A DNA stretch of 57,549 bases from an uncultured virus (IMG/VR IMGVR_UViG_3300044294_000547) (taxonomy: Duplodnaviria > Heunggongvirae > Uroviricota > Caudoviricetes): the IMG/VR virus record IMGVR_UViG_3300044294_000547. One strand, 5' to 3'. Position 1 is the first letter of the stretch; the number at the start of each line of letters is the position of its first letter. The notes beneath the pieces were generated by a model, which ran no database searches, was not told the origin of the DNA, and saw nothing but the letters and a program-made list of their open reading frames with translations. Positions 6,690-49,889 of the stretch are shown here, piece after piece. The translations under genes were made by a program, and so were the position numbers.

Positions 6690-7658
6690 ATGGCTCATAT
6701 TAAAACAGCAAGTGACGGAACACAGAAGATTTCAATGTCCACTGTAGAGTGGATTGATATTGGCCTGAAGCGTGGTCTGCTCTCTATTGATCCTCGGGCT
6801 CCGAGATTCGCTGCAAATCTTGCAAAAAGTGCTGGTCTCCAACCTGGTAAGGCTAGCTATACAACCATCAAGAAAGCCATGCAGAATGAAGAGATCATGG
6901 CAAAGATAGCAAAAAACCTTGAAAGAAGTGCGCTAATTAAGACTGCTCAACAGGTAGGTGAGAACACAGGAGGCCCAGGTTGGGGCACCGCTGCCCTTGG
7001 AGCCGCAGGTCTCGCTGCTGCTGCGCCACTCGCCTTCCAGGGCGGAAGAGATATGTATAGAAATATTGGTGCAGGTCTTTCGAGTGCAGGAAATAGTTCA
7101 GCACAAACCATGTCTGGTCTTGGTTCTGCATTTGGCCAAGGATTTGGCGGTAACCCTGTCGGTGGCGCTGCCACATCATTTGGAAATATTGCAAAAGGGG
7201 TGGGCAACTTTGCAGCCCGAGCTGCCATGCCAGCTCTCGGTCTTGCTGGCGGTTTTTTGGGCAGCAAGTACCTGATTAATCACTTTAAGGACAAATTAGC
7301 AGGCGATTCGGCCCCAAGTCCACAACTTATGGCAGACCCCCAAAAACAGAAGTCAGTTATGAGGTCGATATATCATTTCAACCAGTTGGCTCCAACAATG
7401 AAGGGCATGTCTAGCAGCATTGACAAGCAACTTGACACCATAGCGGCAGCAGTAACCGACACTATTCAGAAAATGCAGGAGGCGCAGAACACTGTCATGA
7501 CTCCCACCATTGTAACCCCTGAAGAGCAGAGGGCAAAAGAGATAGCAGATGCTCAAGCAGCTCAGAATGCTGCTCAGGCAGCATATATGAAATCTATGGC
7601 AGGTCCACAGGTTCAGGCCCCCGCTGGTTTGCCATCCGTTACTGCTCCAGCAAGTTAA
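6690..7658 (+). CDS. Gly/Ala-rich putative virion internal/ejection protein with conserved Trp leader
   Basis: AAGGA SD; IKTASDG..KISMSTVEWIDIGLKRG leader, IKTAQ, two hydrophobic Gly/Ala segments. Confidence 0.7.
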   Translation: MAHIKTASDGTQKISMSTVEWIDIGLKRGLLSIDPRAPRFAANLAKSAGLQPGKASYTTIKKAMQNEEIMAKIAKNLERSALIKTAQQVGENTGGPGWGTAALGAAGLAAAAPLAFQGGRDMYRNIGAGLSSAGNSSAQTMSGLGSAFGQGFGGNPVGGAATSFGNIAKGVGNFAARAAMPALGLAGGFLGSKYLINHFKDKLAGDSAPSPQLMADPQKQKSVMRSIYHFNQLAPTMKGMSSSIDKQLDTIAAAVTDTIQKMQEAQNTVMTPTIVTPEEQRAKEIADAQAAQNAAQAAYMKSMAGPQVQAPAGLPSVTAPAS

Positions 7659-7680
7659 TCACATTCAGAAAGAACGAAAA

Positions 7681-8316
7681 ATGAGCGACAATAAAATGAT
7701 CAAAATATCAGATCGTCAGTGGATGGAGGCAGGTATCAAGAAGGGGTATCTTACAAAAGGCCCAGAAGGTATAATGCTGCGCAAAGAAGCACTAGGATTC
7801 TTGCCTGCCCTTGGTATAGGCGCTGCTATACCTGCTGCTTGGGAAGGGGGCAAGTGGCTGTGGAACAAAGCCACAGGCAATCGCAGCTTGGGAGAACTTT
7901 TTTCCGGATATAGCGTTGATCCCCAGAAATTTCAACAGATCCAAAAAAACTACAAGTTGCTCATGAGGCACCTTGACGAGTTGTCTACGATGTCTCCGCG
8001 TGTGGCGCAAGCGGTCGCGGCAGCAAAAACCGAAATCGCTGCCAAGATGAACGACATGGCACGACAGATTGGGGTTGCAGGAGGTTCTGCCTCTTTCGGC
8101 GGTCAACAACTTGAGGACGAAACCACTGAAGCACATAAGAAACAGCTAGAGGACATAAAGAAGAAGACTCAGATGTATGGCGCTCTTGGCAAAGGCCCTG
8201 GAGGAGAACTTCCAAAAGACTTCAATCCGCAGGCCCCTAGCAAGCCCGCTAGCGGGGCACCCCTTCAATCTGCCACGGCAGCCGCACCTACTCCACCAAG
8301 CACTCCTGGAGCCTAA
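7681..8316 (+). CDS. Putative virion internal/ejection protein with conserved Trp leader
   Basis: KISDRQWMEAGIKKGYL leader, then RKEA followed by hydrophobic LGFLPALGIGAAIPAAW and a coiled coil. Confidence 0.7.
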   Translation: MSDNKMIKISDRQWMEAGIKKGYLTKGPEGIMLRKEALGFLPALGIGAAIPAAWEGGKWLWNKATGNRSLGELFSGYSVDPQKFQQIQKNYKLLMRHLDELSTMSPRVAQAVAAAKTEIAAKMNDMARQIGVAGGSASFGGQQLEDETTEAHKKQLEDIKKKTQMYGALGKGPGGELPKDFNPQAPSKPASGAPLQSATAAAPTPPSTPGA

Positions 8317-8321
8317 TCACT

Positions 8322-8801
8322 ATGGATAGGATTGCTCAGTCACCTGCAGCATCCGGCGCCCAGAGGATGAGGGCTCGTGACGTTAGCTCTTCCGGCAGCG
8401 CCGCCAAGCCTGTGGTTCCCTCGGCAAGAGACATCGCAGCCCAAAATACAAACAGACCTATGGGAGGGGTATCTGTCGCAGCAGCATCCACAAAACCATC
8501 TGTCAGCACCCCGCTTGGCAACAGGGGAACCATCCCCAGCATGACTCAGCGCCAGCAGGAGCAGGTGGCTGCTGCACAAACACCCCAGCAGCAGCAGCAG
8601 CAGTCATTATGGCAATACAATCCAAAAGCAACTCAGGTCTCCCCTCCGACTAAGGTTGGAGAGGATTTATATGAAACTTGGACTGGCCCACACCAATATT
8701 CAGGTCAGCCAGTTGATATGAAATGGGTACTTTCGCCAGACACAGGTGGACAGTGGCAGCCGACTCAGCAACTCAGATATAGCCAATCAGATAGGAGTTA
8801 A
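8322..8801 (+). CDS. Hypothetical low-complexity protein (MDRIAQ...)
   Basis: Co-oriented, 5 nt after the previous stop; Gln/Ser/Ala-rich. Confidence 0.65.
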   Translation: MDRIAQSPAASGAQRMRARDVSSSGSAAKPVVPSARDIAAQNTNRPMGGVSVAAASTKPSVSTPLGNRGTIPSMTQRQQEQVAAAQTPQQQQQQSLWQYNPKATQVSPPTKVGEDLYETWTGPHQYSGQPVDMKWVLSPDTGGQWQPTQQLRYSQSDRS

Positions 8802-8802
8802 A

Positions 8803-9744
8803 ATGGATAAAATTTACACAGGTTTTGGCCCGCTTACCACTTTAACAAATCCCAAAGAGGCAAGCATGACCCTCAACATGTTTAAGGATATTGCACGCTC
8901 AAAGCAGGCACAGTCTATCAATCAGATTGCCACTGAACAACAGAATGAGATCACGGCCGAAGAAGCAAGGAAACGGGTTGATAACAAAGAAATATATATG
9001 ATAAATATCGCTGGATTGCACTACCGACTTCTTGATCCTGAAAGAAAGAAAAAGGTACTCAATCATTTCATAAATGAAATATCAACTGGTCGCTCGGCTG
9101 AGAAAAATATTGAATATGCGTTCAGAAATAGTAATATTATCCTTCCTTTGTCGATGGCAGAAAAGAAAGCGATGGCTCTCGCAATACTCAAAGGTGAGTT
9201 GGTCAATATCCAGTCTACCCCCAAACAGCCTGCAGAACAGCCTAGAGATCAGCAGCAGCCCAAGGCTCAGGAAGCTCCATCAGCAGGTTCGGCTAACGCA
9301 GACAGTTCAAGACAATCACCAGTCGCTGTAGATAACAATGCAGGCAGTAAGGTAGACACTAAGCAGACTCAGCAGACTGCTGCAGGTGGAGAGTCAAAAA
9401 ATAAAACCCCTAGTCAGGGAAGCGGTTTTGGTGCTGGACTTCTGTCTCTCGTCGGGCAGGGTCTAGTAGCCGTTATTGATGCAATCAAAAAGTTGCCGTC
9501 TGCGCCCAAAGTTTCCGATCAGGTTCTTGCTCAAATGATTGTAGCAGATCAGCCGCAATATTGGTTCCCGAACAACGCGGTGTCAGAAACTGGTTTTTAT
9601 GGACCGTTTATCCGTGGACAGAACATTTTCTGGGCAGAAATAGAGTATAACGGTGAAGCCGAACAATTCATGTACAGTGGTAGATATGCATCGGTTCCTG
9701 TTGTGGCATCTCAGGCAGTTAAGGAATCTGCTCGGGGCACCTAA
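8803..9744 (+). CDS. Hypothetical protein (RSKQAQ motif, amphipathic GLLSLVGQGLVAVIDAIKK segment)
   Basis: AGGAG SD at 8793-8797 before ATG 8803, so the start is moved from 8746. Confidence 0.7.
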   Translation: MDKIYTGFGPLTTLTNPKEASMTLNMFKDIARSKQAQSINQIATEQQNEITAEEARKRVDNKEIYMINIAGLHYRLLDPERKKKVLNHFINEISTGRSAEKNIEYAFRNSNIILPLSMAEKKAMALAILKGELVNIQSTPKQPAEQPRDQQQPKAQEAPSAGSANADSSRQSPVAVDNNAGSKVDTKQTQQTAAGGESKNKTPSQGSGFGAGLLSLVGQGLVAVIDAIKKLPSAPKVSDQVLAQMIVADQPQYWFPNNAVSETGFYGPFIRGQNIFWAEIEYNGEAEQFMYSGRYASVPVVASQAVKESARGT

Positions 9745-9953
9745 AAATATTCTACTCTAAAAAAGGGGGCTGTCCACTAGGCTGCCACTTTTTTCTTATG
9801 ATTTCGCTTATTTGCTCTGTTTCTTCACATAATTAACACAACGTTCGTATTTCTTTTTGTCATCTCTGCCGACAGATACTGTGCAAATAGCCCACGGATT
9901 GGGGTCATATTCTTTTTTATTCTTTTTGGCCAGCTTATGCCAATTGCCGTCAT

Positions 9954-10586
9954 TCATCGCCTTGTCCTTGGTCTCGACCGGTTTTTTCTAGCCATTGCTA
10001 TTGCTGCTTCTGATTGTGCTGCTATTGCTGCTTTTGCTTCTGCTGCTTTTTGCTTCCGTGCTGCTGCTTCTTCTTGCTTCTGTCTGTCAGCGTTGTTTTT
10101 GATATTGATATTATTTATGACCATTTTTGTGTACGGTTCAACAAGATCACCATTTGTGTTATACTGATAGATGTACTCCCTTACCCTATCTGAATACATT
10201 TCAATTGTTTCACCACGCTGCATTTTTGGTACGCTTTTTAAAAAAGCATCTCTTGTAGCAACATAGTCCTCGGCACTCATTTGTGAAAGGACGGCCTCAT
10301 CTCCCTCAAGTATTGCCATGATCTGTTCTTGGACACCGATCCTGCCACTCTCTCTAGAAATTGTGTAAGCTTCGCCTTGCTTTTTCCACAAATGTTTCCA
10401 CTCTGCTTTCAGTTGCTCTATCTGTTGCTGTCTCTGTTGTTCAAGTTGTGGATCTTTATTTTGGGGCTGATTATTAAGATTATTCAACTGTCTAGAAATC
10501 TCATTCATTCTATAAGATATGTCAACGATTGTAGCATTCCCCTGATGTCCATGTTGTGCTGTCTTTGAAATGTTATATATACCCAT
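9954..10586 (-). CDS. Coiled-coil hypothetical protein with MGIYNISKTAQ leader
   Basis: Start moved to ATG 10586, which avoids overlap with 10631(+) and follows a GAGG-N17 motif. Confidence 0.7.
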   Translation of the reverse strand: MGIYNISKTAQHGHQGNATIVDISYRMNEISRQLNNLNNQPQNKDPQLEQQRQQQIEQLKAEWKHLWKKQGEAYTISRESGRIGVQEQIMAILEGDEAVLSQMSAEDYVATRDAFLKSVPKMQRGETIEMYSDRVREYIYQYNTNGDLVEPYTKMVINNINIKNNADRQKQEEAAARKQKAAEAKAAIAAQSEAAIAMARKNRSRPRTRR

Positions 10587-10630
10587 ACAAGGTATTTTGC
10601 ATGCAATGGTCGAAAAACCTCTAGGATAAC

Positions 10631-11131
10631 ATGTCAAAAGACAAAGATGATACATTGACAGAAACGGGTATGCAGATTGCCGAAGACGCCATTATTCATA
10701 TTTCAGCGGGACTTGATGAATTCAACCACAACCCTCTCCCCTCAAAAATTACAAATGATATAAGTGTTAATCTTGCTCTACATGGTCCCGACGGTACAGA
10801 CTATGACAGAAGTTGGTTGTCATCACTGATAAAAAATATTATTGAAGAAATTGAACAATCAATAACAATGACGTATATCAGGCTTGAAAAACCCGCAAGG
10901 TTCTTTGGAAAAATGCATTTCAGAAAATCTTGTCCTGAAGTCAAAGACATGAATGTAAAGAATGATTACCAATCCCAAAGGCGGGCAACTCCTAGTGAGA
11001 TAGCATCATTGGTTCAGATCTTAAATATAATTAAAATAAAAGATTTTGTCTATAATGTTAGAAATTGTTGTATGTCCGTTGATAGGGCATGCAGGCAACT
11101 AGAATTGGCTGTTGAAAGATTTTCTCGATGA
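10631..11131 (+). CDS. Hypothetical protein
   Basis: AGGA SD; ATGA overlap with the next gene. Confidence 0.7.
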   Translation: MSKDKDDTLTETGMQIAEDAIIHISAGLDEFNHNPLPSKITNDISVNLALHGPDGTDYDRSWLSSLIKNIIEEIEQSITMTYIRLEKPARFFGKMHFRKSCPEVKDMNVKNDYQSQRRATPSEIASLVQILNIIKIKDFVYNVRNCCMSVDRACRQLELAVERFSR

Positions 11132-11715
11132 AAGAAATCATATCGAAATCATATTCAGAAAAGAAAGCATCTCTCGGCGAATCAATGTCTCGTGGTTTTG
11201 ACATGTTCTCAAGGATGACAAACCATCCTTTGTGGAGGAGTTTTTGGAGAGGAACCCACTTGGACGCAAAGTCTGGTATGCTTGGGCAGGGGCTGAAAGC
11301 CCTTGAAATATATGGGGTGACAGACAGGGAGGGTCGAGAGTTAGCCTCGGCCACTAGAGACATGGTTTCTCTTATCGATGCCACTGAACCAGAATGCTTC
11401 AAGATACCAGATTCTCTGAAAGATGTGCTTGAGAAAATGAACTCCAATACGTCATCTATAATTAAAGATTATAAAAATAAATCTAAACGGTGGAGAAATT
11501 GGTGTAATGAGAATTTTGATTTTGGTCCATTCTCCTCTGCGTACAATAGATACATAAAAAAACACACCAATGAAATCGGCAAGATTGAAAATAAAGCAAT
11601 TGAATTCTCAGATTTACAAATGTCTTTGCTATTTGAATCAGTCTACAAACTCCTAAAAAGAATACAAAACACCAGAAATTCAAATCCACAACTAGGAGAA
11701 GGACTGTGTATATGA
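11128..11715 (+). CDS. Hypothetical protein
   Basis: Translationally coupled (ATGA overlaps) on both sides. Confidence 0.7.
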   Translation: MKEIISKSYSEKKASLGESMSRGFDMFSRMTNHPLWRSFWRGTHLDAKSGMLGQGLKALEIYGVTDREGRELASATRDMVSLIDATEPECFKIPDSLKDVLEKMNSNTSSIIKDYKNKSKRWRNWCNENFDFGPFSSAYNRYIKKHTNEIGKIENKAIEFSDLQMSLLFESVYKLLKRIQNTRNSNPQLGEGLCI

Positions 11716-18180: not shown

Positions 18181-19062
18181 CTATGCTCTGTTGACTAAAA
18201 CCCTCACATATTCAGATGTCTTAAGTTTTTTAAGAGCTTTTTTATGTATTTTAACAACATAAGAAAGATCAATTCCTAACTTTTTAGATACCTCTTCTTT
18301 AGACATATTCTCTGCATATATCATGCTGCAAATCCTGCCTGCAAGAACCCCTATCTCCTTGCTGATCTCTAAAAACATTCGGTTTGATGCATCTGTCTGA
18401 GAACAGGCAGTATTATCATCTGTTTTAAGAAGTATATCTTTAGAATCATGATTGTTTTTATCTTGAATAAAGATAGATATCAATCCCCTCGGAGTTCCGT
18501 CTTTCACAACCTTATCTGGTTTCTCAACTCCTGCTTCAGTCAAAATGTAAATGAGTTCGTTATCGGTCGGCTGTCGTCCATTCATCGTGATAAACTTTTC
18601 TTTATATACATCTAATATTGCCTGTCTTTGTCTGACCAGCCTAGGGGACCAAGTCGATTTTCTCATCTCATCATACATGGACCCAAAAAGTCTATATGTG
18701 GCGAATGTTTCAAATTTATAACCCTTGCTTGGATCGTATTTTTTTATGGCGTCCATGAGTCCATTTGCGGCGTAACTTTTTAGATCTTCCTTGCTGTGCT
18801 CTGGATGTTTGTAGTGCATCAATTCTGACAATTTATCAACGATATCATAGTTCTCTTCTGCTATGCGATTTCTAAGAATTATGTATGCATGCTGAAATGC
18901 ACTGCCCGCACCCTGTAACTCTTTCAGTCTTACCCAACAATCAAGCGGAGTTTCTTTACGCTTGATTGTTCGATTTTCTCTTCTTTTTGGATGAGCTGTT
19001 TTCAAATTTAAGTCAATCTTTCCTTGGCAATAACTTCCATGCTGCAAATCCAACTGCGCCAA
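18181..19062 (-). CDS. Phage-encoded sigma-70 family sigma factor, FliA/WhiG (sigma-28)-like
   Basis: Region 2 GLMDAIKKYDPSKGYKFETFATYRLFGSMYDEMRKSTWSPRLVR, region 3 GRQPTDNEL, region 4 HTH MSKEEVSKKLGIDLSYVVKIHKKALKKL. The true start is probably just downstream of 19013. Confidence 0.9.
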   Translation of the reverse strand: MAQLDLQHGSYCQGKIDLNLKTAHPKRRENRTIKRKETPLDCWVRLKELQGAGSAFQHAYIILRNRIAEENYDIVDKLSELMHYKHPEHSKEDLKSYAANGLMDAIKKYDPSKGYKFETFATYRLFGSMYDEMRKSTWSPRLVRQRQAILDVYKEKFITMNGRQPTDNELIYILTEAGVEKPDKVVKDGTPRGLISIFIQDKNNHDSKDILLKTDDNTACSQTDASNRMFLEISKEIGVLAGRICSMIYAENMSKEEVSKKLGIDLSYVVKIHKKALKKLKTSEYVRVLVNRA

Positions 19063-22498: not shown

Positions 22499-22762
22499 TC
22501 ATCGGATGGGCATCATGGAATGCGCCAAAGATTTTGCAGCAGCAATTGGTATTTTTCCGGTCTCTTTCAGCGCAGCACATATTTCATATTCATTATTTGC
22601 GTGCTCTACAACTGATGCAATCTTTATGGCGTCGTCATCGGATATGCTGACTCCGACACAACTTGCTATCAATTTCTTTATGTTTTTTGGAGACTTAGCC
22701 AACATGGATCCATGCATATCTGCTATCCTCTCCAACTGTCTCTGATACCAGTTATTTTTCAA
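22499..22762 (-). CDS. Hypothetical protein with MKNNWY leader
   Basis: Coupled to the sod gene; leader resembles the other W-leaders. Confidence 0.6.
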   Translation of the reverse strand: MKNNWYQRQLERIADMHGSMLAKSPKNIKKLIASCVGVSISDDDAIKIASVVEHANNEYEICAALKETGKIPIAAAKSLAHSMMPIR

Positions 22763-23385: not shown

Positions 23386-23823
23386 TCATGTTCCTGTAGA
23401 TGGAGTTGCTCCACCTGGAGAACCGCTAGCGGGTGCAGGAGTCTTTGGCGTCTGCGGACCAAGCTCAAGACCATACCATCCACGTATCACAGGTGGATCC
23501 TTTGTCAGATCTACATCAAGTTGCGATGGAAATAGTCTAGAGCCGTCTGCCTGACATGCATCCATGAGTGCAGTTTCAACTGAATTATTTCTGCTCTGGA
23601 GCGCCCTCCTGAACAGAATATTGAGTTTCTTCAGGTGATTTTTGTCGTTATTTGTATCTTCGTCAATAAGGGACGCATCGATTCCTGAAACGGTGCCTGC
23701 GACTCCACCTGCTCCACCAGGAGCCCCACCGGGTGAAGCTCCCGTGTCTTGAGAAATTTTCTCCATGCCAAAAGAATAACCTATTCTTAGCCAGTCTCCA
23801 TAAGACAACTTTACATGCTTCAT
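23386..23823 (-). CDS. Hypothetical protein with conserved Trp leader
   Basis: MKHVKLSYGDWLRIGYSFGMEKISQ. Confidence 0.7.
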   Translation of the reverse strand: MKHVKLSYGDWLRIGYSFGMEKISQDTGASPGGAPGGAGGVAGTVSGIDASLIDEDTNNDKNHLKKLNILFRRALQSRNNSVETALMDACQADGSRLFPSQLDVDLTKDPPVIRGWYGLELGPQTPKTPAPASGSPGGATPSTGT

Positions 23824-25298: not shown

Positions 25299-26131
25299 GC
25301 TAAACTGAAGCCTCCGATAAGGTTGTTTTTGGACAACTGATCCAAATCTGACTTATTTTCGTCGATTTTTTGATCAATATTTGTTATCTGTTCCCGAATT
25401 TGATTGATTGTATCCTCAATCTCCACGCAGTCAGAACTTTTAGACTCATCGCCCTGCCTGCATGCGACATTGTATGCCTGCTGTTTGGCGTCTAGTTGTC
25501 TTTGCAGATCAGCTAGTTGATCCGCCATCTTCTTACTGCCTCCTTTTAGCGCCTCTTGAATTCTTTTGGTTTGCTCTGTATTCGTATCCATGGTCTGCAT
25601 GGCAACCCCCTTGGCCTGCGGAGAATTCATTCGTCCAGTTGGTATCATCGGTTGCTGTTGTTGCGCTGATTTGATCCACCCCGCATTTTTGCCGATGCGG
25701 ATCCAATCCTGTTTGGTCATGGCAAGCTTCAGTTCGGGTGGAGCATTCCACCTACTGTTGTCTTCTATCGGCTCGATTTGTTCCTGCGTTTGTTCCCGCC
25801 AACTACTAGAATTAGAATAAGTCGAACGCAACCCTCTTTTTAATTTATTAAAATCTTCTTTGTCATAATTTTTATAGATTTCAAGGCATTTATTTTCAAG
25901 CGCTTCTTTGACTTCTTTAGTTTTCAAGAATTTAGTATTAGAACTGTCAAAGTACAGTTCTGGTTCTACTTGATAGTCTCTCGAATTTTTTTTGTTTACG
26001 ACATACAGCGTTATGGGGAAAGTTAAAGAAACCCCAGAATCAAGCAGGTCTTGTACTGCTTGTATAATCATGCTTTTATCCACTGCAGCGTCAGTACGTT
26101 TTAATTCATCACTTGCTTTTTTGTTGAACAT
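25295..26131 (-). CDS. Hypothetical protein with internal Trp-leader motif and C-terminal coiled coil
   Basis: MFNKKAS N-terminus; internal LKLAMTKQDWIRIGKNAGWIKSAQ. Confidence 0.75.
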   Translation of the reverse strand: MFNKKASDELKRTDAAVDKSMIIQAVQDLLDSGVSLTFPITLYVVNKKNSRDYQVEPELYFDSSNTKFLKTKEVKEALENKCLEIYKNYDKEDFNKLKRGLRSTYSNSSSWREQTQEQIEPIEDNSRWNAPPELKLAMTKQDWIRIGKNAGWIKSAQQQQPMIPTGRMNSPQAKGVAMQTMDTNTEQTKRIQEALKGGSKKMADQLADLQRQLDAKQQAYNVACRQGDESKSSDCVEIEDTINQIREQITNIDQKIDENKSDLDQLSKNNLIGGFSLA

Positions 26132-34611: not shown

Positions 34612-35163
34612 ATGAATCGAAGACCTTTTGCATTGAGAGATTCTATTAGTCAGGAAATGGGCCTGAGAAGTATGTGTCAATTTGTAAAACAAGTTAAAGG
34701 GGACATTCCTACCATCGTAGAGGTTGGTGTCTTCTGCGGAGAAAGCACCAGAATTTTTGTGGAAGAGTTTTCAAACTCTAAGATCATGTGCATTGATCCA
34801 TGGACAGAGGGATATGATCCGAATGATCCAGCCAGTAATGTGGATATGCATGCGGTTGAAAAGAGGTTTGACATGTTCGCAAAAAAACATAAAGCAGTAT
34901 GCAAATACAAGGGAATATCTTCCGATTTTTCTGCCCTGCCAGAATTCAACAAAGTTTCAATGTGCTATATTGATGGTTGTCATACATATGATGCTGTAAA
35001 AAACGACATCAAGTTTTGGCTTCACAGATGCGAACATGCTATATGCGGCCACGACTACGGATTTAAAAATCACTGGCTTTCACCGGTCACTGACGCCGTT
35101 GATGAAATGGTTGGCAAGCCCGACCGTGTATTCAGCGACGATTCATGGATCAAAATTCTATAG
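34612..35163 (+). CDS. Class I SAM-dependent methyltransferase (Methyltransf_24-like)
   Basis: VEVGVFCGEST, CIDPW, YIDGCHTY, ICGHDY. Confidence 0.85.
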   Translation: MNRRPFALRDSISQEMGLRSMCQFVKQVKGDIPTIVEVGVFCGESTRIFVEEFSNSKIMCIDPWTEGYDPNDPASNVDMHAVEKRFDMFAKKHKAVCKYKGISSDFSALPEFNKVSMCYIDGCHTYDAVKNDIKFWLHRCEHAICGHDYGFKNHWLSPVTDAVDEMVGKPDRVFSDDSWIKIL

Positions 35164-35361
35164 TTGACAAGAAAATCAATATTGCTATTTCTGTTTTTAG
35201 GTTTTTTCACATGCGAAATGGTTGAGCCACCCGTTAGGTGGTCTAAAATCACCTCATCCTCCCTAACGGTGATTAAATTGCGTACTAGCGAGGTTGTGAC
35301 ACAGTACCTTTCCGTCTTAGCCAGATTCTTTGACGATAAATAATGAAGCAGGAACACTAGC

Positions 35362-36981: not shown

Positions 36982-38039
36982 CTAAGAAGCTTCACATACT
37001 CAGCACTGGCGTCCTAGCAAATGATCCTCTGATTGAATGGGGAGCAGAGAATCTCAGGGCAAGTACGGTGCACCAGTCCTTTTTGGCAGACTGGACAATC
37101 GTCACTCACAACGAAGAGCGTGCAGACAAATGCGTACACCAGGCCAGGTCCGCGCCGCTCGACGTGACCGTGATGATAGACGAGGAGAGCAGGACGGACA
37201 GGACAAGCGCTACACGTAGAGCCCTCCTTGAGTTTCCTAAGGGAGAGTTGGTATGGATGTTTCCAGAAGGACTGATACCCTGTCCTCAGGCAGGTCTTAA
37301 GATGAGGGAGGCGGTTGAGTCGTCATTTATGATCGCATATGAGGGAGAAAAATGTGGAGGCCTTGACCATATTGTGTTTGATCGGCCTTCTGATGATATT
37401 CTTGCAACAAACAAGTCGATGCTCGCATTCTTTGACAAAATCAGGAAGAAGGGTAAATCAAGACCTGCTGATGATGTTGTTATTACAAGAGGAGCCACAA
37501 CAGATCTCGAGCGTCTTTCAGTCATATATTGGACTTTAAAATACCATCAACATCACTATACTGATGTTTATGAAAAGTTGCTACAAGGAATGCGATTCGA
37601 TGAAATATCTTTGCTAGAAATCGGCGTTGCCCAAGGGGCAGCCCTGCGCACCTTTAGAGACTTTTTACCCAAGGCAAATGTGTTTGGACTAGATATTTAC
37701 CCCGAGTCAGTGCTGAAAGAACCTAGAATCAAGGCCATCGTAGGCGATTCTACCGAGCAGCAAACTGCAGAAGAATTACTTGCACTCAACAAAGGCAAAA
37801 ATTTCGATGTAATCATAGATGACGCTAGTCATTATGCAGAACATCAGGTTCAGACATTTGAAAAAATGTGGAGTACGCTTTCTTCGGGTGGTATGTACAT
37901 GATAGAGGATATATGGGGAGTCGACATACTTGAGAAAGGCATTACGGAATCAGTGCCTGGAGTCACAATTGAGAAGTTCGACTTGCGGAATAAATCTGGA
38001 TACGGAGACTCTATGATATTCCTTATGCGTAAACCCTGA
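36978..38039 (+). CDS. Protein with C-terminal class I SAM-dependent (sugar O-) methyltransferase domain
   Basis: HHYTDVYE, LLEIGV, GLDI, FDVIIDDASH, GGMYMIEDI. Confidence 0.8.
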   Translation: MTKKLHILSTGVLANDPLIEWGAENLRASTVHQSFLADWTIVTHNEERADKCVHQARSAPLDVTVMIDEESRTDRTSATRRALLEFPKGELVWMFPEGLIPCPQAGLKMREAVESSFMIAYEGEKCGGLDHIVFDRPSDDILATNKSMLAFFDKIRKKGKSRPADDVVITRGATTDLERLSVIYWTLKYHQHHYTDVYEKLLQGMRFDEISLLEIGVAQGAALRTFRDFLPKANVFGLDIYPESVLKEPRIKAIVGDSTEQQTAEELLALNKGKNFDVIIDDASHYAEHQVQTFEKMWSTLSSGGMYMIEDIWGVDILEKGITESVPGVTIEKFDLRNKSGYGDSMIFLMRKP

Positions 38040-38046
38040 CTGATAG

Positions 38047-39180
38047 TCATTGGATCAGGGCATCAATAAATCCGTAGGGCTCTCCCAATTTTGGTATTTC
38101 GTATCCAACTATGACATCACCTAATTTCCATCGGTATCGGTTTTTATACCCGTTACCCCAGTCGATTTCCATTCCATCTGGTATCGATTTCCAAAATGCA
38201 GGTGCAACCGTGCCTGCAGGTGGGTTAGAGATTATCCGCACAGAATTATCGGAAACGATTGAAAACTTAGGACGCTCTAGAAGCTTGAACGGGTGATGCC
38301 TTCCAGCATGCCAATAGGCCAAGAACACACCCTGCTGCATGGGCTTTTCGATATAATCTCTTGCCTTGAACCCCTTGAATAACTTAGAGAACAGGCAGTC
38401 AATCATGTCGTCATGCGTGTTGAAAGGGGCCTTTTTAACCGTTCTGAGCACGTCCTGAAGCGAAACATTCCATGCGGTGTCGGTCCAATGAATGTGCCAC
38501 AGTCTTCCCTGATCATGAAATCCGTGGTAGTCTAAAAAATTAGGCCATTGCTGACAGTTGCATTGAGACCCATTTATGTGGTTTGCCCCTACTAGCCATG
38601 CCAGCATAGACGCCTGAAGGTCACATGGGGTTGGTATTCCCACCGTATCTTGATTTAAAAATGGAGAAAATCTATATATGGCTTTGGATTCATCCGATCC
38701 ATTTATTCTCTTTACTAACGATTTGTTCATCACAGAAATCTCATACCCAAGCCACATCTCACATAGGTCGCGTCCTCCTACGAAGGATCCAGCATGTTTT
38801 TTAAATTCTGATACCCACGACTCGGGAAAATGTCTTCCTGGCCAGGCAGTCCACAGGTGCGGCTTTGGATTATCTATGCCATGACGAAGACAAGATACCA
38901 TGTGGTCTACATCCGTAAGCGAATCATCGTCACAGAACACAACCAAATCGGAATCCTCGTCTAACATTCCCTCGGCTATCAACTTGATATGCCTATCGGC
39001 AACTCTCGTATGGCTCCAATCTATCCATTCCCACGCAGGAGGGAGGGTGTCTGGCCTTTTTCCCTCGCCAATAAAACGTATGTAAACATCGTGACCTGTG
39101 TTTTTGATGCCGCCATGCTGCAGCACCTGATGGCGCATATGAAATTTACTAGATGATATGATGTTAAATGAAACTTTCAT
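38047..39180 (-). CDS. Putative GT-A glycosyltransferase (paralog of 39183..40304)
   Basis: FCDDDS DxD motif; shares WxDWSHxRVADRHI, LWxGYE and TPCDxQxSxLAWL with its neighbour. Confidence 0.6.
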   Translation of the reverse strand: MKVSFNIISSSKFHMRHQVLQHGGIKNTGHDVYIRFIGEGKRPDTLPPAWEWIDWSHTRVADRHIKLIAEGMLDEDSDLVVFCDDDSLTDVDHMVSCLRHGIDNPKPHLWTAWPGRHFPESWVSEFKKHAGSFVGGRDLCEMWLGYEISVMNKSLVKRINGSDESKAIYRFSPFLNQDTVGIPTPCDLQASMLAWLVGANHINGSQCNCQQWPNFLDYHGFHDQGRLWHIHWTDTAWNVSLQDVLRTVKKAPFNTHDDMIDCLFSKLFKGFKARDYIEKPMQQGVFLAYWHAGRHHPFKLLERPKFSIVSDNSVRIISNPPAGTVAPAFWKSIPDGMEIDWGNGYKNRYRWKLGDVIVGYEIPKLGEPYGFIDALIQ

Positions 39181-39182
39181 GA

Positions 39183-40304
39183 TTACTTAAAAAACAGACA
39201 CATCATTGTTGACACTTTTGTGGTATTATAATTGCATGTTTTATATAAATATCCAACATATCCACCTGACATTTGCCAGCAAAACTTGTACACATCACCG
39301 TCGGTTTCTACCAAAAAGCCATCATCACAACTTTGCCATTTTGAAAGCACATTATTCCAAAAAACATCTCCATGGTTTTTTTCACTACAAGAGAACTTGA
39401 CAGGAAGTTTTGCATTTATCATGCTTCCTCCTGTCCAAGGAGCGAAGAACATACCCAAGTCGTATTCCTTATCTATGATAGATTTAGCTTTGATACCAAA
39501 ATGCAACTTTGGAAAAAGATGACCAACCAATTCTTCTTTATTAGCAAATGGACCCGAGACCAAAGCTCGACCGATGTTTTTTTTATTATGTGTTTCGCTT
39601 CTTCCCACTCCATGTATGTGCCATAGTGATCCACTGTTGATTAACCCAGAATAGTCTAAATAGTGAGGATGCTGATGGGCCATCGATTTGGACTGTCCTA
39701 CATGTTTGGCGTCCAACAGCCATGCCAATACAGATATTTGTATGTCACATGGAGTATTAGATGCGGTTGTTGATCCATCCAGGTAGGAAGAAAAATCAAA
39801 AACTCTTTTAGCCAATTCGGATTTGTTCATAAGTGATGCAAGTTTATTGTTCACAAGAGCAGCTTCATATCCAATCCAAAGACTGTTTCTCTCCTTTCGT
39901 GGCATGAGATTTTGCACAGACCGTTGCAAAGCATCGAACCAGTGTTGATGGCATATTTCTCCCAGCGCAGGGGTCCATATGCAAGAAGTGTCTTGAGAGC
40001 AGGTGCTCAGAGCATAATTCACCATGTGATCGATATTTGTGGCTGAATCGTCATCGCAGAACAAATGAAAATCGTAACCATCATCTAGCCCATGATTGGC
40101 AATCATGTGGATGTGGCGGTCAGCCACCCTGATGTGGGACCAGTCTAGCCAGTTCCAATCGCTTGGTACGCAATTAGGTTTTAGACCCTCACCCAAGACA
40201 TTAACACAAACATCATGTTTCTTAAAACGCAATCCGCCACATGAAAGCAAATTAATTCTGTCTGCGTACTTGCTCGATCCAATGACATTAACAGCTATCT
40301 TCAT
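39183..40304 (-). CDS. Putative GT-A glycosyltransferase (paralog of 38047..39180)
   Basis: LFCDDDS; colinear similarity with the neighbouring ORF. Confidence 0.6.
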   Translation of the reverse strand: MKIAVNVIGSSKYADRINLLSCGGLRFKKHDVCVNVLGEGLKPNCVPSDWNWLDWSHIRVADRHIHMIANHGLDDGYDFHLFCDDDSATNIDHMVNYALSTCSQDTSCIWTPALGEICHQHWFDALQRSVQNLMPRKERNSLWIGYEAALVNNKLASLMNKSELAKRVFDFSSYLDGSTTASNTPCDIQISVLAWLLDAKHVGQSKSMAHQHPHYLDYSGLINSGSLWHIHGVGRSETHNKKNIGRALVSGPFANKEELVGHLFPKLHFGIKAKSIIDKEYDLGMFFAPWTGGSMINAKLPVKFSCSEKNHGDVFWNNVLSKWQSCDDGFLVETDGDVYKFCWQMSGGYVGYLYKTCNYNTTKVSTMMCLFFK

Positions 40305-40310
40305 AAGTCT

Positions 40311-41153
40311 TCACCTCAAGTAGTCTTTCACAAAACCATCTTCGCATATATCCATCTTGACCACTCTGTCAAGATTGTCAGCTATTGCATGCATTCTTTC
40401 TCTGTAAATGTCATAATTTAGTATAGACAAGTCAGTTTCTTTGTTGAGCAATATGATTCCATCCATATTGAAATGTCTTCCAATTGACGGGTTTCCAATA
40501 TATATTGGAATTGTGCCCGTGGCAAAACAGTCAGTTATTTTTTCAGTGAAGTAGTCAGAGTAACAGGAATTCTCTATCACAACACTGAACATATAGTCTT
40601 TGAGCCCATCTAGCTTTGAAGCATGGTGATAAAACTCCCCAGACTTTACGCCTATCTGTCTACTCCCACAGGCACCGCCAAAAAGTTCAAGTTTGTCTTT
40701 TAGTTTTTCAGCCCATTTTAGCCTTCTCACATGGCCGGGTGTCATGTTTACGGTAGAGCAAATCATCGACATTCTTTTGCTTTTTGGATATATCTTACAT
40801 TCAGACTCAATCGTCCATGGCGTGTTGCTCGCAGGAAGACTTTTTAGAAAAAAACATGGGTCTAATGCCACAAGTTGGTCATCGCAAGTGAACATGGCTT
40901 TGTAGGAATTTTTATAGCAAGGTAGATTGTCAACAACATGTTGATGGAGTTCAGAGAGCACTCCCCTAGATTTTAAAAACCACCCATATTTGTTGTTGTG
41001 CTTTTTGCTAAGCAAGCCATCATATATGCCACGGTCTATGTAAATCTGTATGTCTCGCTGCTCGCGTGTCCATCGGAATAGTTTTGGCTTTCTTTTTCCG
41101 CATGAAGAAAATTCCGGAAAGAAAGGGAAGCCAATTCCTTGTATTTCTAGCAT
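40311..41153 (-). CDS. GT10 (alpha-1,3-fucosyltransferase-like) glycosyltransferase
   Basis: KDYMFSVVIENS..SDYFTEKITDCFATGTIPIYIG. Confidence 0.85.
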   Translation of the reverse strand: MLEIQGIGFPFFPEFSSCGKRKPKLFRWTREQRDIQIYIDRGIYDGLLSKKHNNKYGWFLKSRGVLSELHQHVVDNLPCYKNSYKAMFTCDDQLVALDPCFFLKSLPASNTPWTIESECKIYPKSKRMSMICSTVNMTPGHVRRLKWAEKLKDKLELFGGACGSRQIGVKSGEFYHHASKLDGLKDYMFSVVIENSCYSDYFTEKITDCFATGTIPIYIGNPSIGRHFNMDGIILLNKETDLSILNYDIYRERMHAIADNLDRVVKMDICEDGFVKDYLR

Positions 41154-41159
41154 TACGTT

Positions 41160-41699
41160 TTACACCATTCTATCTTTTCGGAATAGCCAGCTAGAGTCTC
41201 CGAATGTAGCGTGGGGCTGTCCTATTGCTTTTATCACTGCTGCCGAAACAGTAGGCATCCACGTGAAGTCGTGCCCAGAAATGATGTACTTGGCACGAGG
41301 TTTCCAAAAAGCAATATCAGATGCAACGCAATCCGGAAGGTGACATCCGTCTATGTATACAAAATCCACGCTCTGCAGATTCTGATGACTTGCAAAGTCA
41401 GAGGATGTGCCTTTTAGTTTTATGATGCGAGAATAGTCACTGACAAGAACATCAAAAGTCTCTTCTGCGACATCAAGTGCATATTGGGAGCGAGATGAAG
41501 GATCAGTGTCGTCATATCCAGCTTTCCATGGGTCAATTCCATAGACGGTCGCGTTTGGGAACTCCTCGCTGAATATGAATGTTGACTCTCCGGCGTGGGC
41601 GCCAACATCAACCACGGAACTGATGTTGAATCCATTATCCTTCACCCACCTACACAAATCTCTCAAACCCGAATCTAGAAAACCAAATCTCATCGGCAT
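41160..41699 (-). CDS. Class I SAM-dependent methyltransferase (Methyltransf_24-like), paralog of 34612..35163
   Basis: VDVGAHAGEST, GIDPW, YIDGCH, ISGHDF. Confidence 0.85.
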   Translation of the reverse strand: MPMRFGFLDSGLRDLCRWVKDNGFNISSVVDVGAHAGESTFIFSEEFPNATVYGIDPWKAGYDDTDPSSRSQYALDVAEETFDVLVSDYSRIIKLKGTSSDFASHQNLQSVDFVYIDGCHLPDCVASDIAFWKPRAKYIISGHDFTWMPTVSAAVIKAIGQPHATFGDSSWLFRKDRMV

Positions 41700-42821: not shown

Positions 42822-43253
42822 TTAGCGGGTGCTCCATTTTGAATTTTGATCTCCACCCTGGTCGGATGGCGGCGAACAATAAAGACCTCTGTGCAAAAAG
42901 TGCTCCTCATGTCGTGTAAAGCCAAATGTTTCTTGGGCGAATTTCATGACCTCATCAGAATCAAAATGCCTGCATGAGTACACATCTAGGGTGATAAATC
43001 GTGTGGGCTCCATAGAATGTATCTGAATTCCGCTCTCCACAAGTGGAACCCATACGCTCACCCCGCTTTTGTCGGGAAACATCTCCACACCCCTACTTCT
43101 TGGTCCGTGGATAACGAATGGAGCAGACATCTTGGTCATCCCAAGCCTGTCCACTAGAGTTTCTAGGAACCTGTAGTGCAGTTCAAGGTCGTTTGCCGCG
43201 CCCTTTTTGTTGTTGTACATGTCTAGAAGATACGAGTATCCAAAGGGTATCAT
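42822..43253 (-). CDS. speD: S-adenosylmethionine decarboxylase proenzyme (pyruvoyl-dependent)
   Basis: SGVSVWVPLVES-GIQIHS autocleavage region, ITLDVYSC. Confidence 0.8.
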   Translation of the reverse strand: MIPFGYSYLLDMYNNKKGAANDLELHYRFLETLVDRLGMTKMSAPFVIHGPRSRGVEMFPDKSGVSVWVPLVESGIQIHSMEPTRFITLDVYSCRHFDSDEVMKFAQETFGFTRHEEHFLHRGLYCSPPSDQGGDQNSKWSTR

Positions 43254-43400
43254 ACCTTCTACATCTCCTGTATATTTTTCGACTTGAGTCTTTCCACCTC
43301 AATTACCAACTGCTAGACAAGTATGTGGGCATCCTTCACCAGTCTTGAAAGCCGTGATGACTCCACCTCTGAGCGGAGCAACTTCCTGATGGTGGATATT

Positions 43401-43898
43401 TCACTTGGATTGAGGTGACTCAGCGGCATCTTCGGTCTTTGCACGGACAAACTCCTGTCGGGGCATGTATGGGAAAGACACCTCTCTTGCCTCGACGCCC
43501 TGAGGAGTGTTCTGATCTGAAATGAGCACCACAGCATGGGCATCGAACGAGGTTCCATCCGCCCGACGGAATACATGAACGCAGCGGGTGTTCTGCTGTT
43601 TTCCCTCGACATCAGCAGGATGCCATTCATCTTCTGCCCCCGTGAGCGGGGTGATGACCTGCATTTGGGAGAGACGACCGAATAGAGAAGACGCAAGCCA
43701 CCTGCTTCGGTCGTCTCCAGGAAGTCCATCAAGGATCTCAAGCATCCTCAGCACTGACCTCTCGATGCGTATGATCCAGGGGTCTGTTGCGGAGCCCTGT
43801 CCAGCAGACTCTCTTGCCGTGGTGGCAGTTTTAAACTCCGAACGGGCAAAATCCGTAAGCATCGATGCGTTCAATTCCTTTACAACTTCAGTTGTCAT
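43401..43898 (-). CDS. Conserved phage hypothetical protein
   Basis: ITPLTGAEDEW...QNTRCVHVFR motif; GAGGAG SD. Confidence 0.7.
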   Translation of the reverse strand: MTTEVVKELNASMLTDFARSEFKTATTARESAGQGSATDPWIIRIERSVLRMLEILDGLPGDDRSRWLASSLFGRLSQMQVITPLTGAEDEWHPADVEGKQQNTRCVHVFRRADGTSFDAHAVVLISDQNTPQGVEAREVSFPYMPRQEFVRAKTEDAAESPQSK

Positions 43899-44251
43899 GA
43901 CTGTTTCTCCTCATTTTTGTTGATGATTTCTTCAATAATATTACGATATTCTTTGACCCCACTGAGACCCGTGATCCGCCGTCTCTCCTGTCCGCCGTAC
44001 CACAAGGTGACAGTGGGCAAAGCCTGTATGGAGTTTTTCCTAGCAAAGTCAACATTTGAATCACAGTCTAGCTTGACCACGCGGGCACGCCCCGCGTATT
44101 CGGTAGCGAGTTGGTCCATGGTGGTGGCGAGCATTCGGCACGGACCGCACCAGTGCGCCCACCAGTCAACCAATACAGGTACATCAGACTTTATGACAAG
44201 TGCCTCAAAGTCGGCAGCGTCTATCTTATGGGCTTTGTGCTGCGTGATCAT
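43895..44251 (-). CDS. trxA: Thioredoxin
   Basis: VLVDWWAHWCGPCRML, IQALPTV; start moved to ATG 44251. Confidence 0.92.
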   Translation of the reverse strand: MITQHKAHKIDAADFEALVIKSDVPVLVDWWAHWCGPCRMLATTMDQLATEYAGRARVVKLDCDSNVDFARKNSIQALPTVTLWYGGQERRRITGLSGVKEYRNIIEEIINKNEEKQS

Positions 44252-44624
44252 GTCACCAATCTTACGACCGTGGCGTGTCAGTTCTGGACGGCAAGCAAAT
44301 TTTTCCACTCTTTGGAACCGCTAGGTCAAAGGCCCTTTTGATGCCCTCTTTGCTAGACTCTGGAGCCACCCTGATAATCCCCCTGAGTCTGTCGAGCCAG
44401 TTTGCAACCGCATCTAGATACATCTAGAGGATGGTGTGTAGGATACTGACGGGTTGCTCATGCACATGTCCACGGCAAGTTTCTCTAGCGCCGGCCATGG
44501 CTTGCTAGAGTTTGGCATCTAGTTTGATATAGTCGTGCCCCCGTGCGCCCCATGTGGGTAATTGTTAAGAATGAGTGGTATGTTTTCGGAGGTCAAAAGT
44601 TGAATGAACTTGGTCTGCTGGTAG

Positions 44625-45635: not shown

Positions 45636-45796
45636 GCGACCCTCTGTGTATTAGTATTTATATAAATTAATTATACACACCTTTAAGACGCGTTAAGATC
45701 CTTTTATCAATATGTATTCATAGAGTGACATTACTATTTTTTATTTGTTGCCGTTTGAAGAATGTGCTGATGCACCCCTTCAAGAAAAAAATAAAA

Positions 45797-47559: not shown

Positions 47560-47563
47560 GTTA

Positions 47564-48367
47564 TCACATTGGGGTAATTTTCCAACCAGATGCAGTCTTC
47601 ACCCATTCGTGTGATTCCGCTGTTCTTCCGCCAAAAAGTCCTTTTAATCTACTGAAGAAACCTGGTTGACGGGCTCTATCTGTTTTGAGTTTAATACTAT
47701 CTGAATTATTGGTTTGTGCTTGGGGACAAGGCTCTCCGTGAATACTAACATACACGGACCCATCGTTGATGACATCATTTGCCAATCTTATCAAGTCTTT
47801 GTAGTTATTATTAAATTGACTTTTTATACGATTGAAATCGTATTCCTTCTCTGCTTTAACGGAGATAGACGGACCTATTCCATTGAATTCGTTATCAGTA
47901 CTGATAGGCCCTGTTTCTATGACAACGGTGCAATCATTCGTTTCTTCCCTGCGACTCCCTGCGGGGGTAGTGTTTTCTGCATAATCATAACCCTCTGTAG
48001 AGAAGCCGGAATCTGTTCTTTCTGACCAACTTGTTATACGAACGTTTCTACTAATCTCAATGTTTCCAGAGGAATAGTCATCGATTTTCATACCGTTTGT
48101 GCCGGGGCATGAGACAAGTGTTTGTTGTATGACCTTTTCATTTATTTTTTCTTTGGCAGCGGAGCCAAGATCTTTGATTTTGAATGTTTTAGAACCTTCT
48201 GTTTCTTGCCTGGTTCTTGTACTTTCTTCACCACCTGTTGAGGTAACGTTCTGATTGGGAGTGTGTTGTGCTGTTTTGGGTAGCCATCCTGCTACGTGTC
48301 CTATGCGAATCCATTGATCTTGGGTGATTTTGTTTTTCATGGCGTTTAAATCCATTTTCTTTTTCAT
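47564..48367 (-). CDS. Hypothetical protein with conserved Trp leader
   Basis: MKNKITQDQWIRIGHVAGWLPKTAQ; true start probably 48355 or 48340. Confidence 0.75.
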   Translation of the reverse strand: MKKKMDLNAMKNKITQDQWIRIGHVAGWLPKTAQHTPNQNVTSTGGEESTRTRQETEGSKTFKIKDLGSAAKEKINEKVIQQTLVSCPGTNGMKIDDYSSGNIEISRNVRITSWSERTDSGFSTEGYDYAENTTPAGSRREETNDCTVVIETGPISTDNEFNGIGPSISVKAEKEYDFNRIKSQFNNNYKDLIRLANDVINDGSVYVSIHGEPCPQAQTNNSDSIKLKTDRARQPGFFSRLKGLFGGRTAESHEWVKTASGWKITPM

Positions 48368-48545
48368 TTCTAAATTTATAAAACCTCTTATTTTACGAAC
48401 TACCTAGCATTGAGAACACTACACTGAAGACAAGAAAAAATGCCCTAGAAGCGAAATTAGGCAAAAAAGGTCAAGGATCTATTATATAACTTTGATAAAA
48501 ATAATAGTAGCATGTAGAAAAAACAATATGCCAAAAGAGTATCGA

Positions 48546-49889
48546 ATGCAATACAAATTATCTAAGAGCGAATGGCTAAGTATAGGCAGAAAGGCAAACT
48601 GGCTGAACAAGTTTTCATCCCGTAATCGTTCTGACGGTCTTGTCATTTTTGGTATTTCGGGTGATCTTGCTAAGAAGCAGATATTTTCTGCTCTTCACGG
48701 CTTATCTCGTGACGGAAAGTTAGACATGCCTGTGATTGGATTTGCCAAAGAGAGTCTATCTAAGAAACAGCTGATTGAAAGAATGCGTTCAAATATTGAG
48801 GGTGCAAAAGAGGAAATAATTAATTCTATTTCCGAGCGTTTTCAATACATAAGTGGGGACATAGAGAACCCGAAATCATTTGAGAGTCTGAAAAAATCCA
48901 TTCGTGGGTGCAAAAATCCGCTTATATATTTAGCAATACCTCCACAGGCATTTAAGCAGACGATAATTGGTCTCAGGAATTCAGGATGCAACCAGGGTGC
49001 AAGACTGATGATAGAAAAACCATTTGGAGAGGACAGGAAATCTGCTCGTGAGCTTAACGCGGTTGTTCATTCCGCATTTAACGAAGAGGATGTTTTCAGG
49101 GTGGATCATTTTCTAGGCAAGGACGGGGTGTGCAGTATTTTGGACATCCGTTTTGACGAACCTGATCTTGATCGTTTTTGGAACAGTAAAAACATACATT
49201 CTATTGAGATATCAATGATTGAGGATTTTGATATTCGCGGAAGAGGCGAGTTCTATGACAACACAGGTTGCATCAAAGATGTTGTTCAGAATCACCTGAT
49301 GCAGGTACTATGTTTTTTATGCATAGAGCCATACGAGGCAGGTGATTCTTTACGCGACAAGAAGGCAGAACTTCTTTCGGCTACGGAAGAGGTTAAACCT
49401 AATAATTTGGTTACTGGTCAGTTTACTGGGTATCTGAAAGAGCCTGGTGTTCGTTCGTCTTCGCAAACAGAAACATACGCGGCAATGAAATTGGCGATTA
49501 ACAATCCAAGATGGAGGGAAACTACATTCCACATCAGGTCTGGCAAGAGTATGCCGATGACGAGCACGGAAGTAGCTATAAGGATGCGCAGGATTCCAGA
49601 CATTAAATGGCCAAGCAATTGCAAAGTAGAGGATGGTTTATTGCGGATTCAACTTGAAACAGAGCAGAAGATTCCCACCTACGAGAAGCTTTTCAGCATG
49701 GCTATGGACGGTGATGCAACATTCTTCTCCCGAAAGGACGAAGTTGACCACCAGTGGAGAATATTTGATAAAGTTATAAAAGCAAAAAAAGAAACACCAA
49801 AATATCCATCAGGAACATGGGGTCCTGAATCTTCTAAGGTTGGACCGAAAGAAGGCTGGACTGAACCACTGAAATCCAAAAAAGACTGA
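48546..49889 (+). CDS. zwf: Glucose-6-phosphate 1-dehydrogenase with N-terminal phage leader
   Basis: GISGDLAKK, YLAIPP, IEKPFG, FRVDHFLGK, GRGEFYD, DVVQNHLMQ, RSGK; start 48546 (or 48528). Confidence 0.93.
   Translation: MQYKLSKSEWLSIGRKANWLNKFSSRNRSDGLVIFGISGDLAKKQIFSALHGLSRDGKLDMPVIGFAKESLSKKQLIERMRSNIEGAKEEIINSISERFQYISGDIENPKSFESLKKSIRGCKNPLIYLAIPPQAFKQTIIGLRNSGCNQGARLMIEKPFGEDRKSARELNAVVHSAFNEEDVFRVDHFLGKDGVCSILDIRFDEPDLDRFWNSKNIHSIEISMIEDFDIRGRGEFYDNTGCIKDVVQNHLMQVLCFLCIEPYEAGDSLRDKKAELLSATEEVKPNNLVTGQFTGYLKEPGVRSSSQTETYAAMKLAINNPRWRETTFHIRSGKSMPMTSTEVAIRMRRIPDIKWPSNCKVEDGLLRIQLETEQKIPTYEKLFSMAMDGDATFFSRKDEVDHQWRIFDKVIKAKKETPKYPSGTWGPESSKVGPKEGWTEPLKSKKD

Follow-up and report, generated by a model that had tools for sequence, protein, structure and literature searches.

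Unrelated proteins encoded in a 57,549-nt stretch of DNA from an uncultured virus (IMG/VR record IMGVR_UViG_3300044294_000547), the whole of which we refer to as the window, share a short basic peptide module that we call the tag. We consider that the tag is probably a portable head-loading signal of huge phages resembling Bacillus phage G, similar in principle to the capsid targeting sequence (CTS) of phage T4, and that it is optionally removed by a phage protease. The tag is best explained as the long form of a group-wide leader with the pattern M-x-W-[YFL]-K-x-A. A preliminary description, made from the letters of the window alone, had reported six copies of a ~25-aa Trp/Gly leader on otherwise dissimilar proteins and had read it as a portable address for packaging and co-injecting proteins, a reading to which the present evidence lends partial, indirect support.

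The tag in the window and its protein family

A scan of all six frames of the window with the first consensus returned exactly six matches, starting at 6735(+), 7705(+), 48558(+), 23808(-), 25720(-) and 48328(-). All lie inside long open reading frames (ORFs), and the six reported copies are thus all real. The pattern matched 0 times in 2000 within-protein shuffles of 60 window proteins (17,099 amino acids (aa)). Because the pattern had been derived from the same six copies, this test is not independent; independent proof comes from the finding that a profile of the six retrieves new, unrelated copies elsewhere. Tryptophan and glycine alone are invariant across the six. Of the six copies, five sit at the N-terminus; the sixth is internal, at aa ~135-157 of ORF 25295-26131 (278 aa). 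The term 'leader' fits the five and is too narrow for the family, which also has internal and C-terminal members. Downstream of the motif the proteins are unrelated, as had been proposed: BLASTP of cargo against cargo among the six window proteins gave no mutual matches at E<=1e-4, and the sole cargo with a known family is a glucose-6-phosphate dehydrogenase (G6PD). Between window copies, third codon positions are identical at 24 of 83 same-residue codons (29%), that is, saturated. The tag is therefore conserved as protein and not as a DNA repeat, in agreement with the preliminary description. A DNA repeat or mobile DNA unit was ruled out in the window on the same grounds, and no common upstream motif was found by eye.

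Two profile searches extended the family. The six-copy profile, applied to the records of related phages, revealed tagged orthologs as well as new tagged cargo in records G003 and G004, and several copies in G033, G024, G017 and G030. A 32-copy profile matched 989 protein clusters among 1.84 billion cluster representatives at E<=0.001; the statistics on position, consensus and cargo given here refer to the best 150 of these 989 matches. They hold 183 copies, 144 of them within the first 40 residues, with the consensus M-K-[IL]-[IV]-K-T-A-S-G-K-[KQ]-T-I-K-[LIM]-S-K-S-E-W-x-x-I-G-K-K-A-G-W-[MIL]-K-x-A, and conservation in the alignment ends after K-x-A. The basic module is 24-33 residues long, and its core, K-[ILM]-S-K-x-E-W-x-x-I-G-K-K-A-G-W, is often preceded by M-K-[IL]-[IV]-K-T-A-S-G. 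Judged by the 183-copy consensus, the IKTAS element is therefore the optional first part of the same module. The IKTAS-like piece pointed out at the C-terminus of the 47564 gene (VKTASGWKI) is indeed present and matches the N-terminal hairpin of the family motif.

A stricter regular expression classified 178 copies as 144 N-terminal, 28 internal and 6 C-terminal, and some proteins carry multiple copies. The C-terminal copies end 2-4 residues past G-W, and so does a copy carried by an ORF of 853 aa in record G034. This ORF (C1, up to 18657, +) has what we take to be GHKL-ATPase-like motifs. When the fused cargo was listed, 137 cargos fell into 121 BLAST clusters, which bears out the portability of the tag over unrelated proteins. 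The cargos have a median length of 93 aa and 72% are acidic; the net charge of the tag is +5.7. Domains at the curated Pfam cut-off were found in three of the 150 (TMEM65, AAA and PGDYG). In G035, six tagged genes stand in tandem between portal and terminase. Tags in tandem arrays are 63-76% identical as DNA, and this DNA may double as recombination joints for cargo exchange.

The candidate processing site, the short leader and G6PD

Where the tag ends, a candidate protease site often begins. In the top matches, the site lies directly after G-W-x in 121 of the 144 N-terminal copies. Because the profile favours copies with a cut site, 78 N-terminal copies were also picked by pattern alone, regardless of the site. 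In this unbiased set, [KR]-x-[AS] occurs 1-2 residues after G-W in 45 (58%) and within 12 residues in 50, at a background rate of 1.3% per position, and a second [KR]-x-[AS] lies in the first part of the tag in 57. None of six C-terminal copies has a downstream site; four have one upstream. Since many N-terminal copies have no nearby [KR]-x-[AS], targeting and removal look separable. The statement that the tag is usually followed by K-x-[AS]-[QS] applies to four of the six window copies, in which this motif follows directly (23808, 25720, 48328 and 48558); in the 7681 and 6690 proteins, the first post-tag [KR]-x-[AS] begins further on, at residues 35 and 39, respectively.

The short leader, searched for as M-x-W-[YFLHQ]-K-x-[AS], was present in 13 of 23 records, including four of the five near-complete relatives without the long tag (controls, 0-1), and the final residues of the long tag follow this pattern too. 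The tagged cargo at 23386-23823 is 42% identical, over 92 aa, to a G033 protein in syntenic position that bears the short leader, and long tag and short leader thus alternate on orthologous cargo.

Could the tag instead be a retained binding domain, for phage DNA, a membrane or another virion surface, with the cut sites being secondary? We think this improbable, albeit the strongest of the competing explanations. The large share of unbiased copies ending directly in [KR]-x-[AS], the frequent second site near the tag start and the exchange of the tag with an 8-residue leader unable to adopt such a fold all argue for a removable prohead address, although a strongly basic module with invariant Trp and Gly and a predicted compact fold, about one-third of whose copies have no nearby site and which also occurs C-terminally and several times per protein, has much that would suit a binding domain.

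Among 120 G6PD homologs, only the three closest carry the tag, and all three are phage clusters (97, 78 and 71% identical). The G6PD tag ends where the native enzyme begins, and a cut would leave approximately the native N-terminus. In G003, the tag of the G6PD gene (L051:8558-9955, +) lacks an in-frame ATG and has lost the post-tag K-x-S; there is an AGGAG 7 bases upstream of an ATT codon.

The head protease and the K-x-A code

Which protease might act on these sites? The head module lies 3-23 kb upstream of the window position, in the near-identical record G001 and outside the window itself. G001 (164 kb, 39% complete, 84% shared words) overlaps the window at offset 116,420, and the first four tagged window proteins are 100% identical in it. 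Upstream of the window it encodes a terminase and a portal, a protein of 1904 aa that contains a head-maturation-protease domain, the product of a decoration-like gene, and a capsid protein. The protease is fused to the scaffold in one protein of ~1900 aa. In the protease domain (~210 aa, G001 residues 49-254), His50 and Ser101 are invariant across the alignment, and the model (predicted local distance difference test (pLDDT) 94) resembles the varicella-zoster virus protease (Z 11.4, root-mean-square deviation (rmsd) 2.5, 114 aligned) and T4 gp21 (Z 10.2, rmsd 2.7, 129 aligned), the first unrelated row in the same VIA structure comparison being at Z 6.7. Foldseek matches of the model to herpes proteases and T4 gp21 had E values of 5e-3 to 1e-2. 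The assignment of the head protease to the T4 gp21/herpes assemblin fold is supported by this model. The G001 protein (L063:427-6141, -) also has a Cys-rich insert in the protease domain and a long E-D-T acidic repeat with a net charge of -56 over residues 1351-1500; the median scaffold charge is -6.3 per 100 aa.

In 67 protease-scaffold homologs, K-x-A is the most enriched X-x-Y pair (2191 seen vs 934 expected, 2.35x), in counts that are not independent because the homologs are related. Herpes assemblins cleave between Ala and Ser, which fits K-x-A in that Ser is the most frequent next residue (24%). The scaffold sites also show a hydrophobic bias two residues before K. Elsewhere, the enrichment of K-x-A is 2.33x in ten unknown proteins of the G001 head cluster and 1.38x in 43 portals, and it falls to 1.17x among 19 tail-region proteins and to 1.06x among 21 enzymes of the window. 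K-x-A likewise ranks first among the pairs in head-region proteins of Tunturi 5 (2.12x), Bxz1 (1.9x) and phage G (2.19x, in genes picked post hoc).

The G-W-hydrophobic-K-x-A end of the tag lines up with the short leader as well as with the hydrophobic bias of the scaffold sites, and a cut in the 7681 protein would expose a hydrophobic segment. On this evidence, the module might do no more than aid recognition by the maturation protease, as an extended site or activation propeptide, with head entry or activation occurring by other means. We find this unlikely, given that C-terminal copies stop right past G-W-x-x with nothing downstream to release and that many N-terminal copies have no site.

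Phage origin and distribution

The window is part of a phage of ~400-450 kb that has Bacillus phage G as a relative. It contains phage-type nucleotide and auxiliary genes, and the G001 capsid protein is 51% identical to phage G gp27 (Tunturi 5, 31%; Bxz1, 26%). All 24 listed sequencing runs with part of the stretch are lake-water metagenomes, 11 of them with at least half of its words, including five that may be its source; no RNA dataset containing it was among the listed runs. A strict DNA pattern for W-x-x-I-G-K-K-A-G-W had three matches in 185,579 species genomes, with a tagged gene in one (a 2.5-kb contig of a metagenome-assembled genome (MAG)) and none in the ORF lists of the other two, as well as six stretches in viral contigs and at least 131 in metagenomes. 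Of the latter, 76 were analysed, and 73 of these had a profile match; among loci of at least 4 kb, some of which overlap, 26 of 33 had BLAST matches to proteins of this phage group. The matches thus have a phage context, which speaks against the possibility, raised in the preliminary description, that they might be mostly cellular.

The tag occurs in 15 of 75 records, six of which had been picked for having it while a further one is G001; fragmentary records may hide further carriers. Placing the 11 carrier rows on a quick capsid tree takes six changes, at least three of them by well-supported branches, against a shuffled mean of 9.2 (15 of 500 shuffles were as low). A tblastn search with the 33-aa tag against isolated phages gave no match, no cultured carrier was found among the phages tested, and the two huge phages nearest by ribonucleotide reductase are without the tag.

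A tag that is patchy on the capsid tree, retains DNA identity in tandem arrays and is fused to G6PD, which is not an obvious virion protein, might instead act in the infected cell, either by routing proteins to a host partner or compartment or as a gene-start cassette for expression and a recombination joint. To this we give little credence: conservation is at the protein level with saturated third positions in the window, copies are also internal and C-terminal, tag and scaffold have the K-x-A code in common, and 20 of the 21 window enzymes examined, unenriched as a group, carry no tag.

Predicted fold and searches for known families

AlphaFold2, with 116 alignment rows, predicted strands at residues 2-5 and 11-14 and a helix at 17-27 (pLDDT 81, predicted template modelling score 0.37), and the tag is accordingly modelled as a beta-hairpin followed by a helix. 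No family match was found in Pfam, PHROG, NCBIfam or PDB, and we rejected a known domain as its identity. The literature search found no description of the tag or of a K-X-A rule; a 2020 phage G paper may bear on cleavage. As far as these searches reach, the motif is of an undescribed type, as the preliminary description had suggested. Fold searches with the 33-residue model gave noise-level matches only, and the ESM Atlas yielded three unnamed clusters (under 0.9), to be taken only as a lead. A complex prediction of capsid protein and tag scored 0.00 and was counted neither for nor against binding. That the tag is a relic of an AbrB/MazE-like swapped-hairpin domain dimerising its cargos is very improbable, because the likeness in hairpin-helix-G-x-x-x-G spacing and one SpoVT-AbrB row (E 8.8) in the viral fold search stand against the absence of family matches, the noise-level fold searches and the missing later strands of that fold.

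Proposed mechanism

How might the tag load a head? Many unrelated proteins carry the module, mostly at their N-termini, and it would fold as a hairpin and helix. We propose that, at head assembly, the tag attaches either to the acidic core of protease-scaffold or directly to the protease, and thereby brings the cargo into the prohead. The assemblin-fold protease would then cut after Lys-x-Ala/Ser, digesting the scaffold and freeing the cargo where a site separates it from the tag; cargos without such a site would keep the tag. The cargo would remain in the head and be ejected into the host. A stronger version, in which a self-folding, position-independent packaging module, separable from the cleavage signal, loads hundreds of rapidly shuffling small proteins and entire metabolic enzymes such as G6PD into the heads of phage-G-like megaphages for early-infection delivery and, unlike the T4 CTS, works at either terminus or between fused cargos, is tentative and seems to us rather doubtful.

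Several observations weigh against head loading followed by cleavage. First, among the 78 N-terminal copies of the unbiased set, 28 are without a [KR]-x-[AS] in the next 12 residues and 18 are without one in the next 40; one of the three tagged G6PDs has no K-x-A/S after the tag. Second, K-x-A shows no excess in 72 capsid proteins (0.87x), unlike the cleaved T4 gp23, and reaches only 1.57x across the six whole tagged window proteins (p 0.04). Third, short leaders seem to do the same job, which leaves the need for a folded tag unexplained. Fourth, the tag is present in only 8 of 68 capsid-selected records, mostly fragments, and in none of five near-complete relatives, and a profile search found no long tag in phage G, Tunturi 5 or Bxz1. 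Finally, one of ten looked-up tagged proteins (P0034) is filed under a Thermoplasmatales archaeon MAG, in a 1.07-Mb record; mis-binned phage, provirus and true exception are the candidate explanations.

Features and other genes of the window

Table 1. Tags and leaders located in the window
Feature	Coordinates	Strand	Protein or position
Full-length tag (IKTAS hairpin and W/G helix)	6690..6794	+	N-terminus of 322-aa Gly/Ala-rich protein 6690-7658
Tag	7681..7791	+	N-terminus of 211-aa protein 7681-8316
Tag ending K-I-S-Q	23749..23823	-	145-aa protein 23386-23823
Internal tag ending K-S-A-Q	25661..25732	-	278-aa protein 25295-26131
C-terminal half-tag, K-T-A-S-G hairpin only (VKTASGWKI)	47564..47602	-	C-terminus of ORF 47564-48367
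Tag ending K-T-A-Q	48269..48340	-	N-terminus of ORF 47564-48367
Tag ending K-F-S	48546..48617	+	Replaces native start of G6PD 48546-49889
Basic leader ending R-F-A-S	49894..49944	+	2-hydroxyacid dehydrogenase-like protein
Short leader M-N-W-L-K-Q-A-Q, minimal form of same code	52573..52596	-	ORF 51604-52596
Short leader M-S-W-L-R-N-S-Q	57188..57211	-	659-aa ART-PolyVal-domain protein 55232-57211

The 6690-7658 protein has [KR]-x-A at residues 5, 39, 46 and 84 and a hydrophobic segment from residue 98, and its G003 ortholog keeps the tag. In the 7681-8316 protein, K-E-A at residues 35-37 is immediately followed by a hydrophobic 19-mer; tagged genes occupy the position of this gene in G003, G030 and G033 as well. 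The 25295-26131 protein itself starts with a K-K-A-S leader, and the tag is internal in G003 and G033 too; a search for relatives of this ORF in viral contigs found none. The true start of ORF 47564-48367 may be the second ATG, at 48340, and in its G003 ortholog the tag has decayed and lacks the first Trp. A G033 homolog (40% identity) of the 49894 dehydrogenase-like protein starts with a short M-N-W leader.

Beside the tagged pair, most of the unknown genes at 6344-11715 have an early K/R-x-A/S (8322, 8803, 10586 and 11128), and the block is also found in G003 and G033; these genes are likely to be further head cargo. The 6344 gene was not found in the five large relatives in which it was sought. 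The ART-PolyVal protein at 55232-57211 (-), with its short W-x-R-x-S leader, lies at the right end of the window, which is GC-rich (57%), and is a candidate injected protein. The ORFs at 29453-31204 and 31520-31990 (-), both starting with K-x-A-rich leaders, are a single 697-aa ORF in G003. At 43401-43898 (-) there is a member of the Tad3 Thoeris-inhibitor family (PF25185, E 1.5e-13), and the 685-aa C5 DNA methyltransferase at 27339-29396 (-) has a long middle region outside its best family matches. The product of 33555-34310 (+) has a signal peptide, an aromatic end and, by eye, the look of an outer-membrane beta-barrel; it has no family match, and a similar gene is present in G003 and G033. 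A methyltransferase and glycosyltransferase block (PLOD-type, GT10) spans 34612-41699, partly replaced, by eye, by nucleotide-sugar enzymes in G003. The window also encodes a sigma-70-family factor (18181-19062), an Fe/Mn superoxide dismutase (22759-23385), an AdoMet decarboxylase (42822-43253) and a thioredoxin (43895-44308).

Implications

If head loading is correct, the tag would be a culture-free sequence marker of the first proteins to be injected by these huge phages. The 989 clusters, nearly all of which lack a Pfam family, would then form a pool of candidate anti-defence and host-takeover factors. Capsid targeting would extend beyond T4-like phages, and virion delivery of a pentose-phosphate enzyme would be implied. 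Phage G, Tunturi 5 and Bxz1, which are in culture, would allow the Lys-x-Ala protease rule to be tested, and a compact tag active at either end could help to load proteins into large capsids.

Comparison with known systems

In T4, the CTS on internal proteins IPI-III is removed by the prohead protease gp21. According to the parts of PMC9026906 covered, packaging there needs no more than ten residues, targeting can be separated from processing, and proteins fused to a CTS are both packaged and delivered. The tag is alike in being a short peptide common to divergent cargos; many of its copies, though not all, end at a candidate protease motif that is enriched in the scaffold, and the phage encodes a protease of the same fold, here seen in G001. 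In contrast to the T4 CTS, which has 10-19 aa and is cut after L/I-X-E, the tag is longer and basic, has a predicted fold, often ends in K-x-A/S and is not strictly N-terminal. The tag phages also differ from T4 in having a phage-G-like capsid protein and the protease-scaffold fusion.

In phiKZ and SPN3US, one protease (gp175 and gp245, respectively) processes many head proteins after Glu (PMC10052503 and PMC13282480, in part). The processing of many head and ejection proteins by one protease at repeated propeptide sites would be a likeness (PMC10052503, PMC9026906); the cut after Glu is a difference, as are propeptides of 20-254 aa, which the covered parts of these sources do not report as one common sequence module. 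Within the phage G group, Iyer et al. (PMC7824862, in part) noted divergent head peptidases of the SH superfamily, and the parts covered of PMC12484599 and PMC8570332 report no cleavage motif. The head modules of phage G, Tunturi 5 and Bxz1 share a related capsid protein and K-x-A as top pair and differ in having no long tag; phage G also has separate protease and scaffold-like genes.

Herpesvirus assemblin (UL26/UL80) is the best structural match of the protease domain and is likewise N-terminal to a fused scaffold, whereas P3 is Lys in the tag phages; we know of no cargo tag for herpes capsids. Encapsulin cargo-loading peptides are likewise short and found at either terminus, and they bring enzymes into a shell of the HK97 fold, as the tag would; they differ in attaching to the shell itself and in remaining uncut. 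We read the tag as working like a CTS while not belonging to the CTS family, from which its other motif, greater length, predicted fold and flexible position would set it apart. The principle is known from T4; what is new is the sequence, the size and the predicted fold.

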